From a virus: DNA of 64,000 nt. The translations under genes were made by a program, and so were the position numbers. Location of the stretch: IMG/VR virus record IMGVR_UViG_3300040786_000066; one strand, given 5' to 3'. Shown in pieces: positions 4,218 through 60,990 of the stretch (positions within the stretch are counted from its first letter, which is position 1; each line of letters starts with the position of its first letter). The notes beneath the pieces were generated by a model. It was not told the origin of the DNA. It was given only the letters and a program-made list of their open reading frames with translations, and made no database searches.

Positions 4218-5315
4218 TTAATACTCCTCTACATACTTTCCATAAAGCAAGTATGGTTTGGGATCATTCAAAGGATTATCAAAATCCCTGAGGTCTTTTC
4301 CATCAGCTCCTATAGAAGAAATACTGACTTTTATATGTGGCCCTGTTTGAGATCCAGAACCTCTATAAGAACTAGCCTCATGTATCAAGTCTCCTCTTTT
4401 ATATTTCTTGTTCAAATGCTTCTCTTTCTCGTCCCAAAGTTTTGGATCAAGATGCATGTAATTAAAGTCTTTCCAGTAGCGTCGTCTCTCATTACTGCAT
4501 AGACACCTGCTGAAGCCCCTTTAGTAGGTGATATAATAGAGCCGTCTCCCTGCTTACGTATGCTTATTAAAGTACTGTCTGTCAATACTATAGGAAGATT
4601 ACTTGCTTTACCGTCCCTGCTATAGCCTACCATATCCATACCTTTAGAATGGTGCCCTCTCTTCCAGGAACAGCATTAGCCCGGAACGGATCCCAAAGTG
4701 TTAGTTACTTTGTATATATTATTACCTACGTTGACAGCGTCTCCAATGTTGACAGCCTTTTTACCATTCTTTCAGCAGCTGTAACATTAGTTGTTTTAAC
4801 AGCTTCTGCGGCAACCACTTTTGAGCGGCACTAGCGTACACTTCAGGTTCTATCAAAAGTCGTCTCCTGCAGAAGATTGAGCAGCCTGAGCTTCTTGCCC
4901 TTTTCCGGGCTATCATCCTCTATAGATTTCTCCGAAGCTTCTGCTTGTTGCTGTTTGCTGGCGGCAAGTTTTTCTATAGCAGCTCTCAAGCTTTCACTTA
5001 ATTCTAAGTTCTGCTCATCACCACTTTGGATTTGTTTGCTCATTCTATCAAGCTCTTTCTCACTATTCTGGCCCATCTCCAAAATCTTTTTCCTTGGGCT
5101 TTCTCCATCTGCTTTAATTTCTCATCATAATTAGCAGCTAGTTGATCTGTATCAGGAGTATTGTTTGAAGCATTAGCTGCTCTGTTAGCAACAGCTGCTG
5201 GTCTAAGCTCTTCAGAAACGCCGTCCATAGAGCGATCGAAGTCATAGTTAGACTTTCTTTTGTTATAGGATTTAGCTTTTAGCGACCTGTATGATTGTGA
5301 GTTGAGGTTGTCCAT
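4218..5315 (-). CDS. hypothetical protein, frameshifted; C-terminus loosely resembles an M23-like 'GS..TGPH' segment
   Basis: Fragments 5040-5315, 4843-5082, 4412-4639, 4218-4457. Confidence 0.45.
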
Positions 5316-53120: not shown

Positions 53121-53580
53121 TCATAATACTTTATTTAGTAATAAAAATACCTCTGAGCTAAACTCCTTGCTCTTTAAATCCACCTTTCTTAATCTAGAGT
53201 CTTTATTTTTATTTTCTTTTATGATACTAGAACCCAAGGTAGTAGACAAATAAATTATATAATTGTTCTTAATATCGTCAACAGCGCGCTCAGAAACAGA
53301 CAGCTTGCTGCCTATTAAGAGCACGTCTTCTTTATTGCCAGGAAGTATAACAGACTTAGTTCGCTGCACATATCCCAACATAACTAGGACTTCAAGGCCT
53401 ACAAAATAGTACCCAAACTTGTTCTGTGATAGCTCCCATTCTGTGGTGGGGTCGTTAAGTCTAATGTTTTGTTTTCAAGAAGGTCTTGCACCAAAGAATG
53501 CAGGGTGACGTAAGGAAGGAATACTCCTTTGTCCACGGAGGCAATAAACTCGTCAAACTTCCTCCAGGGCGAAACCATTC
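53121..53580 (-). CDS. hypothetical protein, frameshifted
   Basis: ORF 53121-53381 plus an upstream fragment. Confidence 0.4.
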
Positions 53581-53589
53581 AGTTGCCCC

Positions 53590-53942
53590 GTTTAGTTTAT
53601 AGTCTTCGTTAACTATTCTGTTATCAGCGTACTTCGCGTGCAGAATATCTTCAACGTCTTTGTTGACTAAGGCTATTGGAGTACTTTGCCCCTAACACAC
53701 AGGCTCTTAAACCTGGCATGAGGGTCAGCGGTCTTGCCTATCTTATAAATATTTTTTTGAATGTCTTTAAGAACGTAGGTGTATACAAGCTTGTTTTCGT
53801 GTGATTCGTAAATAGCTTTCTCCTGGATATCGATAATATCCTTCTTTAATCCTTTGTTCTTTGCGCGTTCTGCAGACTTCTTTCTTTCGTATGAATCTGC
53901 GCTATATGTTTTGGTTTCTTCACTTGAGTCGTGCTTTAGCAT
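53590..53942 (-). CDS. GIY-YIG-like (T5orf172/MUG113-type) domain protein
   Basis: YTYVLKD...IYKIGKTADPHARFKSL. Confidence 0.65.
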
Positions 53943-54680
53943 CTCAATCTTTTAAGCAACACTTCAATACGTTTGTTAAGCACTACGATCTCTTCCTCAA
54001 AAGAAGCAAAGTTTTCGAAGATGTTAACTTTCGCACGAAGTTCCCTGTGCTCTAAGAGAAGTTTTTCTTCAGAATCCAACATAATGCTAGACACGTCTAG
54101 GATCTGAATCCCTTCGCCTATAGCACTATCTAACAAGTATCCCTTGGAATCTAAGTCTTCCAGAATTAGGTTTAAAGCCCTTCTCGATACACCAGTTTCT
54201 TTAACAAGAGCGGTAATGTTGCTGATGTTTGAAATTCTTTTTCTCCTAGCATGATGACTTTTATTATAAAAGCCTTCACGGAATGGGAGAGGTCCGGTCG
54301 AGAAATGAATGAGTAGGTTATGATTTGGTATTTGATTCGTAATTTGAGAATATTGGAAACGTAAGAAGTGCCTATTTTGTTTCTGAAAAGGAAGTTATTA
54401 TCCCTTTATCCTCCAGGTCTTTAATGCATTTTCTTACAGTGTTCTTGCTCAACCCCAGTACGGTAGTAAATGTTTCTAGTGAAAGAATTCTCCTGTCACC
54501 TCCTAATTTATAAGTAGAATCCAGAAACTGGTCTATATCTATAAAAGCCAAAACGATTAGGCTTTTTGAGTCTATGTTATCGAGCTGGAAAGGAACCCTG
54601 GAATGTTTTCCAAAAGCTGTGTCTTCCTTACCTCTGTGGGTTTCTATCTTTATCTTGTTGGTCTTATTTACTGCTGTCAT
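53936..54680 (-). CDS. winged HTH DNA-binding protein(s), probably joined to the downstream GIY-YIG module
   Basis: VLGLSKNTVRKCIKDLEDKGII and KETGVSRRALNLILEDLDSKGY HTH segments. Confidence 0.55.
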
Positions 54681-54806
54681 TTCTTATATATCTAGTGGAT
54701 AAATGTACTGAAAATATGCATGATCCCTCTCTAATAATACACTATTTTAATGTAATGCACCCTCTGGATAAAGTTCCATGAAAACTCTGAAAAATAAATA
54801 CTGCTT

Positions 54807-54839
54807 TTGTTGCAAGGCAGCATATTTTTGCTATATTTG
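54807..54839 (+). promoter_or_regulatory. Bacteroidota sigma-A-type promoter, tRNA operon 1
   Basis: -7 box TATATTTG (54832-54839), with TTTG/TTG upstream. Confidence 0.65.
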
Positions 54840-54844
54840 TAATC

Positions 54845-54913
54845 ATGAAAGCAATACTACTTCATATAGAACAACCACGACCGCTACTTTGTAACGGAGG
54901 AACTTCTGTATGA
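54845..54913 (+). CDS. attenuator leader peptide 1, MKAILLHIEQPRPLLCNGGTSV
   Basis: Intact 22-codon ORF between promoter and terminator; codons CTA, CAT, GAA, CAA, CCA, CCG match the downstream tRNAs. Confidence 0.75.
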   Translation: MKAILLHIEQPRPLLCNGGTSV

Positions 54914-54951
54914 TAGGCTGATTAAATAAAAATCGTCTTAGACACATATAC

Positions 54952-54980
54952 AAAATCCTTCTAGCAATAGAGGGATTTTT
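54952..54980 (+). terminator. attenuator terminator 1
   Basis: AAAATCCTTCTA-GCAA-TAGAGGGATTTTT, 6 nt before tRNA-Pro. Confidence 0.85.
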
Positions 54981-54986
54981 GCATTT

Positions 54987-55062
54987 CGGGGTGTAGCGTA
55001 GCCCGGTCTATCGCGCCTGCTTTGGGAGCAGGAGGTCGCAGGTTCAAATCCTGCCACCCCGA
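54987..55062 (+). tRNA. tRNA-Pro(TGG)
   Basis: Cloverleaf; CCTGC-TT TGG GA-GCAGG; GGTTCAAATCC. Confidence 0.95.
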
Positions 55063-55067
55063 CAAAT

Positions 55068-55142
55068 TCAGTAGATACAGTAATTGGAAACTGGTAACTG
55101 GCTGGGTCAGTGCATGGAAGGTTCGAATCCTTTCTACTTGAC
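55068..55142 (+). tRNA. atypical tRNA-like gene, anticodon unresolved (possibly Pro-GGG with a collapsed G run)
   Basis: D arm CAGT/ACTG, T arm GAAGGTTCGAATCCTTT, anticodon arm ACTGG-CTGGG-TCAGT with a 5-nt loop. Confidence 0.55.
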
Positions 55143-55180
55143 AAAGATGTTTATGCTTTTAACTTTAAAATAAAGCGCAC

Positions 55181-55252
55181 GGCGCCATCGTCTAACGGTT
55201 AGGACAGCAGGTTTTCATCCTGCAGATAGGAGTTCGATTCTCCTTGGCGCTA
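55181..55252 (+). tRNA. tRNA-Glu(TTC)
   Basis: GCAGG-TT TTC AT-CCTGC. Confidence 0.93.
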
Positions 55253-55257
55253 CAAAC

Positions 55258-55328
55258 TGGAGTATGGTGTAATGGTAACACAACTGTTTTTGGAGCAGTC
55301 GTTTTGGGTTCGAGTCCCGATATTCCTA
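55258..55328 (+). tRNA. tRNA-Gln(TTG)
   Basis: ACTGT-TT TTG GA-GCAGT. Confidence 0.9.
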
Positions 55329-55337
55329 CTAATACAT

Positions 55338-55423
55338 GGTGTTTGTTGCAGAGCGGTCAAATGCGCCAGGTTGTGGTCCTGGTACCCGTAAGGGTTTCGT
55401 GGGTTCGATTCCATCATTCACCC
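55338..55423 (+). tRNA. tRNA-His(GTG) with long variable arm
   Basis: CCAGG-TT GTG GT-CCTGG; G-1 and C73; extra hairpin ACCC-GTAA-GGGT. Confidence 0.85.
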
Positions 55424-55643
55424 AAAATACAATAATATGTTAGTAGATAAAAGAAGAGAAGAGGCCTTGAAAAGTCTGTACTACCTTGGGGAATAGCTGT
55501 TCAGATAAAAGACAGGTGCTATGGCAAAGTTATTGATAATTATAGGCATACAAATACCTGTATTGCTGTTATACCTTCAGATAAGACTTGTGTTGAATTC
55601 TATAGAATAGAGGAACTGGCAGTACAATAATAATAATGAATAA

Positions 55644-55725
55644 GCCTTCGTGATGAAATTGGTAGACATGCTAGATTTAGGATCTAGTGTCGCAAGACGT
55701 GTTGGTTCGAGTCCGACCGAAGGTA
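55644..55725 (+). tRNA. tRNA-Leu(TAG)
   Basis: CTAGA-TT TAG GA-TCTAG; class II variable arm. Confidence 0.95.
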
Positions 55726-55779
55726 CATATTAAATATTTAGTGATTCATAGTTCGAAAATAATTTACTATATTTGAACT

Positions 55780-56251
55780 ATGGAAAATAAAAAAAAGCTG
55801 TAGCAAGTAGATTAGGTTTTGTAGTAACAGAAGAAGGAGTTGCATACAATAAAAAAGTATTGTAGGATACAAAGATCCCAGAGGGTATTGCAGATTTACT
55901 TTTAAGCTAGTAGGAGTTTCAATAAACATAGCTATTCATAGGCTGCAAGCTTTTCAGAAGTATGGAGACCTCCTTTATGAAGAAGGTACAGTTGTTCGAC
56001 ATTTAAACGGTGATCCAGGAAGTAATGCTTGGGACAATATAGCAATAGGCACTATGTCAGACAACATGTTTGATATCCCTAAGCAAATAAGAATTCGAAG
56101 AGCTGAGCATGCGTCTTCTTTGTCACACAAGCACGATCACGTTAAAATTAAACAGTGGCACATAAATAACGGAGCATCTTATAAAAATACAATGATAGAA
56201 TTTGACATATCAAGCAAAGGCACATTAAATTATATACTAAAGAAAAGTTAA
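55780..56251 (+). CDS. HNH homing endonuclease, frameshifted
   Basis: IHRLQAF..YG...VVRHLNGDPGSNAWDNIAIGTMSDN motif with a C-terminal HTH-like segment. Confidence 0.8.
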
Positions 56252-56257
56252 ATAAAG

Positions 56258-56289
56258 TTTGGTAGTTAATACAACTTGTATTACATTTG
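56258..56289 (+). promoter_or_regulatory. Bacteroidota sigma-A-type promoter, tRNA operon 2
   Basis: TTTG (56258) - 20 nt - TACATTTG (56282-56289). Confidence 0.7.
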
Positions 56290-56318
56290 GCTTTCAATAT
56301 AAAACAAAAACACTTTCA

Positions 56319-56399
56319 GTGAACACAGCAATAAACATAGCAGTAGTAATTATGACCGGGGCCGATATGGCTTTGGAAGGATCTACGTGGTATGGCTAA
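56319..56399 (+). CDS. attenuator leader peptide 2, (M)NTAINIAVVIMTGADMALEGSTWYG
   Basis: GTG-start 26-codon ORF. The in-frame upstream KTKTLS suggests a true ATG near 56299 lost to an indel. Codons match the Ala/Ile/Gly/Met/Asp/Thr/Val tRNAs downstream. Confidence 0.72.
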   Translation: MNTAINIAVVIMTGADMALEGSTWYG

Positions 56400-56424
56400 A
56401 TTGAAAGCACATATAAAATAACAC

Positions 56425-56460
56425 AAAGATCCTTCTAGAAATAGAGGGATCTTTTTTTTT
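56425..56460 (+). terminator. attenuator terminator 2
   Basis: AAAGATCCTTCTA-GAAA-TAGAGGGATC-T9. Confidence 0.88.
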
Positions 56461-56530
56461 AGGTAAGCTCTATTGGACGAGCACCTGTTTTGCATACAGG
56501 AGGTTGCGGGTTCGGGTCCCGTCTATTCCA
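56459..56530 (+). tRNA. tRNA-Ala(TGC), 5' acceptor strand incomplete in this sequence
   Basis: CCTGT-TT TGC AT-ACAGG; T arm intact; the 5' end merges with the terminator T run. Confidence 0.75.
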
Positions 56531-56537
56531 CAATAAT

Positions 56538-56610
56538 AGAAGTATAACTCAGTTGGTAGAGTGCCCGCCTGATACGTGGGTTGTCGTAGGTTCGAGCCCT
56601 GCTACTTCTA
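56538..56610 (+). tRNA. tRNA-Ile(GAT)
   Basis: CCCGC-CT GAT AC-GTGGG. Confidence 0.92.
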
Positions 56611-56622
56611 CAAAATTTAAAC

Positions 56623-56697
56623 GCAGCAATCGCATAGTTGGTCAATTGTACCTGACTTCCAATCAGGATATCGTGAGTTCGAATCTCACTTGCTGCA
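56623..56697 (+). tRNA. tRNA-Gly(TCC)
   Basis: CCTGA-CT TCC AA-TCAGG. Confidence 0.92.
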
Positions 56698-56707
56698 CAG
56701 AATATAT

Positions 56708-56780
56708 TGCGAGATAGAGCAGCGGTAGCTCGTGGGTTTCATAAGCCTAAGGTCGTGGGTTCGAATCCCACTCTTCGCAA
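56708..56780 (+). tRNA. tRNA-Met(CAT), initiator-like D arm
   Basis: TGGGT-TT CAT AA-GCCTA; GAGCAGCGGTAGCTCG. Confidence 0.88.
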
Positions 56781-56785
56781 CAAAT

Positions 56786-56859
56786 GGTATTGCAGCATAT
56801 TGGCGTATGACGCTCCCCTGTCACGGGAGAGATTGAGGATTCGAATTCCTTCAGTACCG
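56786..56859 (+). tRNA. tRNA-Asp(GTC)
   Basis: CTCCC-CT GTC AC-GGGAG; G73. Confidence 0.9.
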
Positions 56860-56865
56860 CAACAT

Positions 56866-56938
56866 TCCCGAGTAGCTCAGTTGGTAGAGCGCTTGCCTTG
56901 TAAGCAAGATGTCGCAGGTTCAAGCCCTGTCTTGGGAT
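56866..56938 (+). tRNA. tRNA-Thr(TGT)
   Basis: CTTGC-CT TGT AA-GCAAG. Confidence 0.95.
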
Positions 56939-56942
56939 CTAT

Positions 56943-57017
56943 GCAGCAATAGCTCAGTTGGTTCAGAGCGTCTGGTTTACACCCAGAGGGTCGTAGGTTC
57001 GAATCCTTCTTGCTGTA
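56943..57017 (+). tRNA. tRNA-Val(TAC)
   Basis: TCTGG-TT TAC AC-CCAGA. Confidence 0.93.
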
Positions 57018-57022
57018 CAAAT

Positions 57023-57095
57023 CGCCCCATAGCTCAGTAGGTAGAGCACTCCCCTCATAAGGGATAGGTCACGAGTTCGAATCTCGTTGAGGCAA
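57023..57095 (+). tRNA. tRNA-CAT (elongator Met or lysidine-modified Ile2)
   Basis: TCCC-CT CAT AA-GGGA; standard D and T arms. Confidence 0.85.
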
Positions 57096-57115
57096 CTAAT
57101 TATTTTAACAAATAC

Positions 57116-57146
57116 TTGCACCGTATGTGTTATAGTAGTATATTTA
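57116..57146 (+). promoter_or_regulatory. Bacteroidota sigma-A-type promoter, tRNA operon 3
   Basis: TTG (57116) ... TATATTTA (57139-57146), one mismatch to TAnnTTTG. Confidence 0.55.
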
Positions 57147-57162
57147 CAGCTTAGAAAATAAA

Positions 57163-57234
57163 ATGAAAACACTTTCTTGTTCATATAATAGTTTTAATTC
57201 TTGGTTCTTCGGACCGAGCAAGACTATCGTATGA
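57163..57234 (+). CDS. attenuator leader peptide 3, MKTLSCSYNSFNSWFFGPSKTIV
   Basis: Intact 23-codon ORF; codons 5-16 are all Ser/Cys/Tyr/Asn/Phe/Trp, the tRNA set downstream. Confidence 0.8.
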   Translation: MKTLSCSYNSFNSWFFGPSKTIV

Positions 57235-57264
57235 TAAAGTGAACAACATATAAATCATCGAATT

Positions 57265-57295
57265 AAAGTCTTGCAGAAATGCAGGGCTTTTTTTT
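57265..57295 (+). terminator. attenuator terminator 3
   Basis: AAAGTCTTGCA-GAAA-TGCAGGGC-T8. Confidence 0.88.
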
Positions 57296-57304
57296 GTTTA
57301 ATAA

Positions 57305-57389
57305 GAGAGTCCAAAGTCAGCTTGGATCTGGCAGCCGGACTGTAAATCCGGTCTTGTTACGGGGAGAGGTTCGAGTCCTCGGGTTCTCA
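57305..57389 (+). tRNA. tRNA-Tyr(GTA)
   Basis: CCGGA-CT GTA AA-TCCGG; long variable arm. Confidence 0.85.
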
Positions 57390-57396
57390 CAATAAA

Positions 57397-57484
57397 GGAA
57401 GGTTAATCCAAGTTGGTCTAAGGGATGCGGTCTTGAAAACCGTTAGTCGTAATTGGCGTGTGGGTTCGAGTCCTACACCTTCCG
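57397..57484 (+). tRNA. tRNA-Ser(TGA)
   Basis: GCGGT-CT TGA AA-ACCGT; long variable arm; G73. Confidence 0.92.
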
Positions 57485-57488
57485 CAAC

Positions 57489-57576
57489 AGAAGAATGTCC
57501 GAGAGGCTGAAAGAGCTCGTCCGCTAAACGAGTGTGCATGGAATATGGCACCGTGGGTTCGAATCCACTTCTTCTA
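57489..57576 (+). tRNA. tRNA-Ser(GCT)
   Basis: CTCGT-CC GCT AA-ACGAG (C at position 33); long variable arm. Confidence 0.82.
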
Positions 57577-57583
57577 CAAATAT

Positions 57584-57656
57584 TCTTGTGTAGCTCAGTG
57601 GTCAGAGCGTCCGACTGTTAATCGGAGGGCCGTAGGTTCAAATCCTACCTCAAGAG
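57584..57656 (+). tRNA. tRNA-Asn(GTT)
   Basis: TCCGA-CT GTT AA-TCGGA. Confidence 0.95.
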
Positions 57657-57662
57657 CAAAAT

Positions 57663-57736
57663 ACGCTGGTGTCCGAGTGGTCCAAGGAAGATGTCTGCAA
57701 AACTGAAGAGCGTGAGTTCGAATCTCACCCGGCGTT
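57663..57736 (+). tRNA. tRNA-Cys(GCA)
   Basis: Loop CT GCA AA and U73; anticodon stem weak as sequenced. Confidence 0.8.
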
Positions 57737-57814
57737 CTAGAATCTACAGACTGTAGCGTGCTGTAGCTCTATCTTGTTGCCAATAAAATAAGACCTAATT
57801 TTAAAGTAAACATA

Positions 57815-58145
57815 ATGAATACAAGTACAAAACAAACTGAAAATTTAGCCAAATGTAGCGATAAGTCAAAACCATTGTTAGTGGCAGTTACTTGTCAATT
57901 AACTGAACGTGGTTTTCAACTAAAAACAGAGATAAAGTTAATGATGATAGGTTAGGTATAAAATTATCTTTTACAAATGAAGTTGGTAAATATGTTGAAA
58001 TTTACGATGAAGATACTTATTTGCATATTTTGCATTATGGATTTGATGGCAAATATTTACCTATTGGGTTTGATGTTTTATTTATAAAGATATTAAAAAA
58101 TATGGCGCGTTTTTAGACGGTATTTTGGCTAATTGCCTGTAGCAC
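57815..58145 (+). CDS. small hypothetical protein inserted in tRNA operon 3, frameshifted
   Basis: MNTSTKQTENLAKCSDKSKPLLVAVTCQLTERGFQLK...; AT-rich. Confidence 0.45.
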
Positions 58146-58211
58146 TTTGCTAAACGATATCAACTTAAGAGTGAGCCTTGTTATGATTGTCAAAAGTTGC
58201 TACAGTAAAAT

Positions 58212-58284
58212 AGTCGCCAGCATAATGGCATGCAGCAGGTCTCCAACACCTTGCATGGATGAGGTTCGATTCCTCAGGTGATTG
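58212..58284 (+). tRNA. tRNA-Trp(CCA)
   Basis: AGGT-CT CCA AC-ACCT; TGAGGTTCGATTCCTCA; G73. Confidence 0.8.
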
Positions 58285-58287
58285 CTA

Positions 58288-58358
58288 AGGAAAGTAGCTC
58301 AGGGTAGAGCACCAGATTGAAGATCTGGGTGTCGGTGGTTCGAGACCACCTTTTCCCA
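58288..58358 (+). tRNA. tRNA-Phe(GAA)
   Basis: CCAGA-TT GAA GA-TCTGG. Confidence 0.88.
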
Positions 58359-58592
58359 CTTATAAACCTACTGTTTATTTAATAAGCTAACACGTACTAA
58401 AAACTTGAGTTAAATTTTAATAGTATAAATTTGGTTATTATATTAATTTTAGTATATTCGTAGTCCCAAACCATTTGTTATGTATATGCTATTTTTTACT
58501 GTTGGAGTAGTTATAGGTATTATTCTATATCGTTTCTTTGCGACGATCCAAAATTAGCAAATAACCAGACAAAATCAAACCTACTAAAACCA

Positions 58593-58619
58593 AGCCCTGC
58601 CCCAAGCAAGGCTTTTTTT
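58593..58619 (+). terminator. intrinsic terminator closing the tRNA region
   Basis: AAGCCCTGC-CCCAA-GCAAGGCTTTTTT. Confidence 0.65.
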
Positions 58620-58687
58620 ATATGCCTCGGTTTCTGCTTTCTTTAAAACCTGATTTTAGTATTATAATAAGTACTAGCACATTCGAT

Positions 58688-60990
58688 ATGATATACTATA
58701 GCAAACAAAAGTACAGGCGGCACAACAGGGTGCTATATTACTAAACAACGATGCTCGATTGAGAAACGCTGTTCTAAGAAACGTAAGGACTATGGGCGGA
58801 CCAATGAAAAAACAACTCCGGTAACGCCTTTTAAAAGCCTCTATAGCCCCTTTAAAACAAAGTTTTCCTTCTAGAGTAAACGAGTCCACAAACGTTCCAA
58901 AATAAAGCCGCTCCTTACAACTCAAGAAGCAGCAAATAGCTTGACTGTTAAAGAAAAGCCGGAGTAGCAAAAGCCTACTTAAACGAGTGGATGGCTTCAC
59001 CCAGGTATATGGAAATGATCAAAACAAGCGCCCCTAAAACTTCCAAAAATAACGGAAAGAAGACAGGCTGATTTATACTCCGCGCAAGCAAGCTACATGC
59101 ATAGAGATAAAGGAAACACTGCTGCTGACTCCAGAAATTCGGACGGCAGTATTCGAGTATTCCGAAAAGGTGTAGGTACTAACGGTACTCTAGTGCATGA
59201 GATGTCGCACTCAAGCGACAGAACTGGCCGAAGTACAGGCGAAAGGCTGCCCATAACGGATGTAAAAGAATAGCAATGTTCTCCAATAGCGCTTATAGTG
59301 CAGTTAATAAAATAGTTCCAAATGAAAGAGCTGAAAGAAGAAGATGGGTATCTTATGTCACAGACCCTACAGAAACAAGAGCGCGATTAAATGACGTCCG
59401 ATTTCAGTCTAAAGAGCGCAGTATTTACGACCCCTAAGCAAAAAAGTTACTCCTGAAATATATGACAATATGAAAAGCCAAAATTTTGAAGATGAACAAC
59501 ACAGTGGCTTCGATGCTTTAAAACAGCTGAGAGGAATCTACTCAGACAAGGAAGTAATAAACTTATTGAACACCGTATCTGAAAATAAAAGAAAGCCCTT
59601 CCAAACAACATTGAACCACGATACTCATGATCTACTATAACAATAAAAGCGCCTCTGCCAAGTTACAGACCGGAGGTCAGACTCCCAAAGAATTCCAGAC
59701 AGAATACATCCAGTCCTCTAAATACGCAGCGCGACTTAAGAGTAGCGGATATCAAGCCATACCTAAAGTAGTTGAAAAAGACTTGGCCAAGTAGAACAAA
59801 CCGGGCTAAACAAATATAGAAAACACTGGGTGAGGCCTTGATGTCTTTCAAGTCCCTGCAGGCACCGGTAGTCATTTCGATAATTCAAGAGTCAACATAG
59901 ATTATAAAACTGATCTACATGATTTAAAAAAAGGATATCCAGGAATGACCATGCCTAGCCCAATAGAAGTAGAAGCACATGAGTTTTCTCATCCAAGTGT
60001 AGCCGATCTAAAAGGCTTATCACAAGATAATATCATGAACGATTACGACAACAGACAGCTTATTGGCAGAGGCCAGCGCCTTCCGTACGTAAACGACCAC
60101 GATAAAAGAGCCAGTGAAAACAAGGCGGACATCGACGCCTACAGGTACATGCTGAAACAGAAAGGTGTACGACGCCGGCAAGGAGACCTTCACGAAAGAA
60201 CATCTGAAAACAATTCCAAGAATTTCAGTCGAGAACGCCTTCAAAGAAACTACTCTGATAAAAATCTGATCTGGCTTATGAACAACGTGGCTTCATCTCC
60301 GTCAGTGCCTTCGGCTTCGCCGCCTGTCGCGGGATCGAGTCCTCTTGTACCTTATAATAATTCGCAGCGCGTAATGAAAGCCGGCATGCAAATGGATTGG
60401 GATGCAGTTAGAAATGTTAACGACAACGGCCTTGTGCAAACTGCTAAGATATTTGACCCTACTGGAATATCTTCCTATCCCGATGTGTACTATGCCTATA
60501 AAGATATGGTTGCAGGAAAAGGGTCCGCTACAAATTTGGGACTTAATATATTAGAGCTCTACCGGTAATAGGTAAAGCCAAGACTATATTTAGAATGGCC
60601 AAACTAAACAGGGTTGGAAAACCTACTGTAGGCTTAATAAAAGCAATGGATGGAGTAGCGTCAATAACCTCAAGCATAAACAAAGTTACCGGGGCACCAG
60701 TAGCCTACGCAAGAACTCTTTCAGGATCGAGCAATAGGGTAGTTCGAGGTGCGTCCTACTTAGCAAAAGGAGCTGATAATATAAGTACAAACCTCGCTAA
60801 AAAATTAAGGCCTACTGGAGAAAAGTATTCTTATAAAGTAATTACCAACTCTGACTATAAAACCTAGGAGTAGACGTGCTAGATACAGGAACTTTTACAT
60901 GACTTAAATGCTGCCGTATCTACAGCAGTGCCTACAAAGAAATCACTGATCGATAAAAATAAAAAAATTGTTTTACAGACTCGAATAATG
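58688..60990 (+). CDS. large putative virion protein(s) with two HExxH zincin-like motifs, frameshifted
   Basis: LVHEMSHSSD (~59190) followed by YVTDPTETRARL; EAHEFSHPS (~59975); late-promoter motif at 58657. Confidence 0.5.

Follow-up and report, generated by a model that had tools for sequence, protein, structure and literature searches.

A probable leader-peptide attenuator in front of seven tRNA genes of a Bacteroidota phage

Results

The third unit of the tRNA array

The window analysed here is a stretch of 64,000 nucleotides (IMG/VR record IMGVR_UViG_3300040786_000066) that belongs to a tailed phage, as judged from PHROGs matches to tail-fibre and virion proteins. Between 54.9 and 58.4 kb, the + strand of the window carries an array of 17-18 tRNAs (ARAGORN and Rfam). 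The array is built of three repeated units, and the element referred to as attenuator 3 heads the third one. In this unit the end of tRNA-Met at 57096 is followed by a promoter-like box, a short ORF (57163-57234), a terminator (57265-57295) and tRNA-Tyr, which starts at 57305. The features of the unit are:

57115..57146, + strand: promoter-like element of the Bacteroidota type, read from the sequence, function predicted
57163..57234, + strand: leader ORF MKTLSCSYNSFNSWFFGPSKTIV, 23 codons, ATG at 57163, stop codon TGA at 57232-57234
57175..57210, + strand: putative control codons 5-16 (S C S Y N S F N S W F F), assigned by match to the downstream anticodons
57181..57234, + strand: predicted hairpin 1:2 (anti-antiterminator), folding, -18.6 kcal/mol
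57218..57276, + strand: predicted antiterminator 2:3, folding, -16.0 kcal/mol
57265..57295, + strand: predicted intrinsic terminator, folding, -13.4 kcal/mol, in agreement with an independent terminator scan
57305..57657, + strand: tRNA-Tyr(GTA), tRNA-Ser(TGA), tRNA-Ser(GCT) and tRNA-Asn(GTT), ARAGORN and Rfam
57663..57736, + strand: Cys-like tRNA, Rfam tRNA match of 44.6 bits, weak call
58212-58285, + strand: tRNA-Trp(CCA), called only at the relaxed ARAGORN threshold and without Rfam match, weak call
58288-58359, + strand: tRNA-Phe(GAA), ARAGORN

The promoter-like element consists of CTTG (57115-57118), a 20-nt spacer and TATATTTA (57139-57146; consensus TAnnTTTG). The same -7 box is located upstream of the homologous leaders in the relatives L016, L059, phi17:2 and Calle_1 described below, mostly with the ATG 6 nt further on. 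The ATG follows the -7 box after about 6 nt in all of the five lineages compared except the window phage, whose ATG at 57163 comes 17 nt after the box, and the mRNAs of the other four may therefore be leaderless. The ORF is short, its start codon is close to the promoter-like element and it lies 5' of the tRNA genes that it is proposed to regulate.

The leader of the second unit (window 56319-56399; L013, - strand, about 4310-4385) has no in-frame ATG at its head. It starts with a GTG after AAAACA(C/T)TTTCA in the window phage and in the relative with 64% identity alike. As this start is conserved in the window phage and in L013, it is not a sequencing error.

A reading of the leader TGA as a sense codon was considered and rejected. 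If TGA or TAG is taken as a sense codon, no more than 7-8 additional ORFs of at least 200 amino acids appear, and the longest ORFs stay unchanged. With TAA as sense, 38 instead of 16 such ORFs are obtained; this gain was not taken as recoding, because TAA is the commonest stop triplet in AT-rich DNA, and the genome does not have a recoded look. Only one ORF of at least 350 amino acids is found in the whole 64 kb, and no reassignment of a stop codon restores longer ones. The scarcity of long ORFs reflects either very small genes or indel errors of the assembly.

The leader codons match the tRNAs encoded downstream

Codons 5-16 of the leader are TCT TGT TCA TAT AAT AGT TTT AAT TCT TGG TTC TTC. 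The sequence-only reading had described them as twelve consecutive control codons that cover all seven downstream tRNAs, and this description holds. All twelve are readable by the anticodons GTA, TGA, GCT, GTT, GCA, CCA and GAA, and no tRNA of the seven lacks a codon in the run, where the reading of TCT by Ser-TGA presupposes that U34 decodes the complete four-codon box, and where the Cys-like and the Trp tRNA are weak calls. Both Ser boxes are represented as had been stated, by TCT/TCA and AGT, respectively. In contrast, the tRNA set of unit 1 reads only one of these twelve codons and that of unit 2 none. Over the whole ORF 13 codons are readable by the own set, compared to 2 by the unit-1 set and 6 by the unit-2 set.

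The triplets of the control set make up 27% of the six-frame triplets and 25% of the long-ORF codons of the window, which gives a chance (p^12) of about 2e-7 or 6e-8, respectively, for a run of twelve at a given position. The window has about 128,000 triplet positions, and these contain just one other run of at least twelve, in an off-frame stretch. The leader carries a run of putative regulatory codons which is linked to the function of the genes behind it, as found in leader-peptide attenuators.

Downstream of leader 3, ARAGORN calls Tyr, Ser-TGA, Ser-GCT, Asn and Phe at default settings. The Cys-like tRNA has the anticodon loop CUGCAAA, and three of the five pairs of its anticodon stem are mispaired, with the remaining cloverleaf being normal; ARAGORN is not able to call its anticodon in the window. 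Counterparts exist at the same place of the array in L004, phi17:2 (annotated as pseudo), L059, L013 and Calle_1, and those of L013 and Calle_1 are named Cys-GCA by ARAGORN. The odd Cys-like tRNA is also seen in L001 (5736-5810), L004 (9013-9087) and L059 (- strand). It may be an unusual but functional tRNA and may perhaps escape a defence that cuts tRNAs. The Cys-like and the Trp tRNA are separated by a spacer of 470 nt (57740-58210) with an ORF of 47 codons (57816-57959), in which no terminator was called.

Mutually exclusive RNA structures in the leader

Folding of the leader yields mutually exclusive structures with sensible energies. Hairpin 1:2 comprises 22 bp with two 1-nt bulges, and its 5' arm is formed by the control codons 7-15. 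Its apex hairpin (57200-57218) alone reaches -7.7 kcal/mol. The 3' arm, region 2, extends from 57218 to 57234, i.e., from GCAAGACT through to the stop codon. A competing helix between the control codons and this region had been proposed from the sequence alone; it is recovered by folding and, with 22 bp from 57181 to 57234, is longer than had been claimed. In the antiterminator the core is the pairing of GCAAGACT (57218-57225) with AGTCTTGC (57267-57274), with inner helices in between. The two segments are exact complements, as had also been proposed, and AGTCTTGC sits within the 5' arm of the terminator stem. The terminator itself has a stem of 11 bp (57265-57290), a GAAA loop and a U8 tract up to 57295 and ends 9 nt short of tRNA-Tyr. 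The leader ORF is in this way separated from the tRNA genes by an intrinsic terminator, the antiterminator shares the bases of the terminator 5' arm, and the anti-antiterminator overlaps the putative regulatory codons.

The minimum free energy of the whole leader is -39.9 kcal/mol (z = -5.2), and none of 200 shuffled sequences was as stable. In the ribosome-free fold hairpin 1:2 and the terminator are preferred. When region 1 is occupied, the advantage passes to the antiterminator, which exceeds the terminator in stability and is transcribed before it.

To represent different ribosome positions, folds were calculated for an RNA that ended before the 3' arm of the terminator and in which no pairing was allowed from 15 nt upstream to 14 nt downstream of the A-site codon, the size of this footprint being an assumed one. 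With the A site on codons 2-14, region 2 captures the 5' arm of the terminator. The capture is weaker at codon 15 and is gone at codons 16-20, because the footprint then reaches region 2. The part of the ORF predicted to give read-through is therefore the part with the control codons. For a ribosome at the stop codon, the terminator is obtained in the fold of the full-length RNA. In the model, region 2 is accessible while the ribosome is stalled on the regulatory codons and is blocked once the ribosome has reached the stop codon. The leaders of L016 and L059 switch at the same place as that of the window phage, and most of the six other units examined show a similar switch; for unit 3 of phi17:2 the switch is not clean. 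Equilibrium folds of the full-length leader always favour the terminator, even with a stalled ribosome, and the attenuator model therefore depends on the co-transcriptional order of events, as classical attenuators do.

Relatives with a homologous leader

The nearest record, G001, ends where the tRNA array begins. Protein- and pattern-based scans led to further relatives. L004 is a near-identical contig with an identical unit 3. L013, L016 and L048 represent one relative, for which a flanking protein is 64% identical, and L059 is a metagenome contig that also has a unit 3. BLAST matches were obtained to cultured Cellulophaga phages, namely phi17:2 and phi4:1 (Lightbulbvirus) and Calle_1, phi38:1 and phi40:1 (Callevirus). 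A scan with the pattern TGTWSNTAYADYADYTWYAAYTYNTGG returned 65 loci; true leaders followed by tRNAs were only those of L004, L016/L048 and L059, and the others were AT-rich chance matches. A stricter leader pattern gave no match in the metagenomes. The unit-3 leaders of the relatives are:

L016: MKAIVCSYSNYNFWSIRSGGTSTV
L059: MKHIFCSYNSYNSWFFNRAGLLYD
phi17:2: MKTNYCTYNNSNWSFSYDTG...
Calle_1: MKTNMTYNNFSWYSNCSFSSYN...

The block of seven tRNAs follows the homologous leader in L013, L059, phi17:2/phi4:1 and Calle_1/phi38:1/phi40:1. In L013 an ORF for an HNH-type homing endonuclease (1282-1960, - strand) is located directly after attenuator 3, with a truncated tRNA-Tyr (5' part only) on one side and an intact tRNA-Tyr on the other, as is left behind when an endonuclease inserts into a tRNA gene.

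Covariation in the competing helices

The window phage, L016 and L059 were aligned over the entire unit (alignment A1; three sequences, 78% mean column identity). The helices behave as follows:

Hairpin 1:2, outer helix: 93% of cells paired, 1 pair changed on both sides
Hairpin 1:2, middle helix: 83% of cells paired, 0 pairs changed on both sides
Apex hairpin: 95% of cells paired, 3 pairs changed on both sides
Terminator: 100% of cells paired, 2 pairs changed on both sides
8-bp antiterminator helix: 100% of cells paired, 1 pair changed on both sides (A-U to G-C)

In total seven pairs are changed on both sides among the three relatives. When the partners of the 8-bp antiterminator helix and of the apex hairpin were slid by 1-3 columns, only 23-55% of the cells were paired. 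The change in the antiterminator helix occurs in L059, where a U of the terminator arm is replaced by C and its antiterminator partner A by G; the terminator pair, formerly U-G, is now C-G. This double change keeps both alternative helices at once. In shuffle controls 8 of 500 and 36 of 500 reach the observed pairing values, and since such controls are weak with three sequences, the covariation is taken as supporting evidence and not as proof. The amino-acid replacements within codons 6-15 of the three relatives all stay within S, C, Y, N, F and W.

The sequence-only reading had further pointed to covariation inside one genome, and this is borne out by the three units of the window. They differ in their antiterminator sequences (unit 1, GGAGGA/TCCTTC; unit 2, TGGAAGGATCT/AGATCCTTCTA; unit 3, GCAAGACT/AGTCTTGC) and keep the pairing. 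The antiterminators of phi17:2 (ACAGGATC vs GATCCTGT) and Calle_1 (GAGAGG vs CCCTCT) are unrelated in sequence and follow the same pairing logic.

Each leader follows the tRNAs of its own block

A tRNA array with the same three blocks and one leader per block is present in four lineages, i.e., the window phage, the uncultured relative, phi17:2 and Calle_1:

Block 1: Pro, Glu, Gln, His, Leu, Arg-ACG; leaders MKIQRLHLQELEQP... (phi17:2) and MNARLLHQEPLEQLRLP... (Calle_1)
Block 2: Ala, Lys, Ile, Gly, Met, Asp, Thr, Val, Arg-TCT; leaders ...TKTGITVIDKTKGARA... (phi17:2) and MKTIMNIATDIRTKGVK... (Calle_1)
Block 3: Tyr, Ser, Ser, Asn, Cys, Trp, Phe

For the twelve leaders of the four lineages, codons 2-18 match the own block with 0.53-0.88 and the other blocks with 0-0.29, and the true labelling of leaders and blocks is the single best of 1296 permutations, where the four lineages are not four independent trials because the ancestry of the cassette is shared. 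The leaders are strongly diverged across the lineages and have retained the block match.

The match extends to the choice of codons. In the window phage Leu-TAG is the sole Leu tRNA, and leader 1 uses CTN at all four of its Leu codons; TTR accounts for half of the Leu codons in the long ORFs of this phage. In relatives with both Leu-TAA and Leu-TAG, TTA and CTN are mixed in the leader. Within the control runs of the relatives the Arg codon is CGN in the block-1 leaders (Arg-ACG) and AGA in the block-2 leaders (Arg-TCT), where AGR makes up 75% of the Arg codons here. Arg codons outside the control run deviate, for example with AGG in unit 1 of L013 and AGA at codon 4 of unit 1 of Calle_1. Unit-3 leaders always contain both TCN and AGY. 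This codon-level tuning fits a sensor for particular isoacceptors better than one for amino-acid composition. Unit 1 of the window retains a CGA codon and two ATA codons for which the block has no matching tRNA.

Several further observations concern the array. Between tRNA-Leu and unit 2 (window 55740-56250) lies a frame-broken remnant that resembles an HNH endonuclease (...NGDPGSNAWDNIAIGT...). The Leu-TAA and Arg-ACG tRNAs, which relatives carry at this place, are absent from the window phage, and the CGA codon of leader 1 persists despite the absence of Arg-ACG. The tRNA-His (55338-55423) is 86 nt long and has an extra arm; it is equally long in L004 (6673-6758), and the Cellulophaga phages have 75-77 nt. 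A second copy of tRNA-Pro(TGG) at 55068-55142 is detected at the relaxed threshold only, its counterpart in L004 (6401-6475) at default settings, and it looks like a decaying duplicate. The three-way split of the tRNA blocks is common to L007 and L001 (Cellulophaga phages; Callevirus, Lightbulbvirus) and the window phage, with a different block order. As the split is shared across phage families, attenuator-plus-tRNA cassettes may move between phages as modules.

Discussion

A ribosome-mediated switch in front of tRNA genes

We consider it likely that the third tRNA sub-operon of this Bacteroidota phage is gated by attenuator 3, acting as a ribosome-mediated (leader-peptide) transcription attenuator. 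In silico this reading, which had already been put forward from the letters of the DNA, is supported by the exclusive structures, the switch point at the end of the control codons, the covariation and the block match. The seven tRNAs are probably made only when ribosomes decode the control codons slowly. The leader ORF would then be translated, transcription and translation would be coupled, and termination would respond to decoding speed.

The proposed sequence of events is as follows. Transcription would start from the TAnnTTTG-type promoter, and the 23-codon leader would be translated behind the moving RNA polymerase. If the codons for Ser, Cys, Tyr, Asn, Phe and Trp are decoded fast, the ribosome would reach the TGA at 57232 and cover region 2, or, if it has already left, region 2 would pair again with the control codons. 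In both cases the terminator at 57265-57295 could form and transcription would end before tRNA-Tyr. If decoding of any control codon is slow, the ribosome would sit on codons 5 to about 15 and hairpin 1:2 would be open. Region 2 would then pair with the emerging AGTCTTGC, no terminator would form, and read-through into the seven tRNA genes would result. As the products of read-through would relieve the stall, the circuit would be a negative-feedback supply loop for decoding capacity.

Amino-acid starvation also stalls the ribosome, and therefore the sequence leaves both tRNA loss and uncharged tRNA as the variable that is sensed. On the side of tRNA loss, a possible but clearly tentative extension is that the three attenuators act as class-specific alarms for tRNA loss in infection and together form an inducible counter-defence circuit. 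Host anticodon nucleases, tRNA-modifying defences or the decay of host tRNAs would deplete, e.g., tRNA-Tyr or tRNA-Asn, the ribosome would stall in the matching leader, and replacement tRNAs of that codon class alone would be transcribed within minutes. The context for this extension is given by what is known on phage tRNAs and host tRNA-targeting defences (PMC10264068). If it is true, the circuit would be an inducible counter-defence rather than plain housekeeping feedback.

On the side of uncharged tRNA, the attenuator would be real and would report amino-acid supply or general translational activity instead of tRNA abundance, so that phage tRNA synthesis is tied to starvation or to overall ribosome speed. 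We regard this as unlikely. A stalled ribosome cannot distinguish a missing from an uncharged tRNA, classical attenuators sense charging, and the sequence evidence suits both readings equally. However, read-through yields tRNAs, which are helpful only if tRNA is limiting, and the leaders track the isoacceptors of their own block (CTN only with Leu-TAG; CGN vs AGA for Arg). Since they follow isoacceptor content, the tuning appears to be at the level of the tRNA and not of the amino acid.

Less probable still, and in our view very improbable, is ordinary operon punctuation, in which the terminator would simply end the transcripts of the preceding tRNA block, and the small ORF would be a chance frame that is not translated or would encode a small protein. 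Small ORFs are abundant in phage genomes, and there is no terminator between tRNA-Met (57023-57096) and the leader, so that the terminator at 57265-57295 would stop upstream transcripts too. Punctuation would nevertheless leave the 8-nt antiterminator complement and the covariation without a role. In addition, the promoter-like box is located upstream of the terminator and not downstream, the match to the own block recurs in twelve leaders of four lineages, and the leader peptides differ among lineages whereas the codon set is kept.

Ribosome-free sensing, in which termination would be set T-box-like by direct pairing of tRNA anticodons with the codon row, agrees with the complementarity of leader codons and downstream anticodons but can practically be dismissed, as neither the T-box (specifier loop, T-box sequence, Rfam model) nor any other Rfam leader family (Trp, His, Thr, Leu, Phe and others) was matched in 53500-59500, where at E <= 1 only tRNA and chance matches appeared, the codons lie within a stable helix and not in a specifier loop, and the three alignable relatives all retain an in-frame start codon together with a stop codon at the end of region 2 (in phi17:2 the leader stop is further downstream).

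Comparison with known attenuators

The trpL, hisL and pheL leaders and the multivalent thr and ilvGMEDA leaders are attenuators of enterobacterial amino-acid operons. The pheL leader is described in PMC3082878. Attenuator 3 shares with the enterobacterial leaders the short ORF near the promoter in which regulatory codons follow one another, the mutually exclusive regions 1:2, 2:3 and 3:4, the intrinsic terminator before the regulated genes and a stop codon at a position where a ribosome that has not stalled blocks region 2. In difference to them, it would regulate tRNAs and not biosynthetic enzymes. Its run mixes six amino acids and seven isoacceptors with one to four codons each, whereas the enterobacterial runs repeat one or two amino acids, and the element lies in a phage and has Bacteroidota-type promoter signals and no Shine-Dalgarno sequence.

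In the attenuator of pheST, which encodes phenylalanyl-tRNA synthetase in E. coli, a leader peptide senses the decoding of its own codons. This system has in common with the phage element that a leader-peptide attenuator regulates a component of the translation apparatus; however, pheST attenuation controls a synthetase gene and one amino acid, and attenuator 3 would control seven tRNA genes together. In the T-box, uncharged tRNA is bound directly and no ribosome takes part; the genes under its control are synthetase or amino-acid genes. The common feature here is termination control that reads tRNA status by codon-anticodon recognition. In mycobacteria, leaderless polycysteine short ORFs are described as Cys-responsive attenuators (bioRxiv 10.1101/834739). 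There, too, the decoding of particular codons is sensed in a short ORF at the extreme 5' end of the mRNA, a position similar to that in the four phage lineages whose mRNAs may be leaderless, but the mycobacterial system regulates downstream protein-coding genes with one amino acid, where the phage attenuator would act on tRNA genes.

Full-text literature searches returned no published description of leader-peptide attenuation of tRNA genes, and the transcriptome paper on phi38:1 (PMC5335546) makes no mention of phage tRNA leaders. Judged by its sequence, attenuator 3 has every hallmark of leader-peptide attenuators and would be new in regulating tRNA genes.

The purpose of phage tRNAs has long been debated between codon compensation and the replacement of tRNAs depleted by host defences (PMC10264068), and the regulation of phage tRNA genes has hardly been addressed so far. 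The cassettes also occur in the cultured Cellulophaga phages phi38:1, phi40:1, Calle_1-3, phi17:2 and phi4:1, and therefore the idea can be put directly to an experimental test. For synthetic circuits meant to report how fast chosen codons are decoded, the design offers a compact and modular part. If the attenuator reading is true, leader-peptide attenuation extends from amino-acid metabolism to tRNA genes, and the phage would gauge decoding capacity directly and top up only the codon class that is running short.
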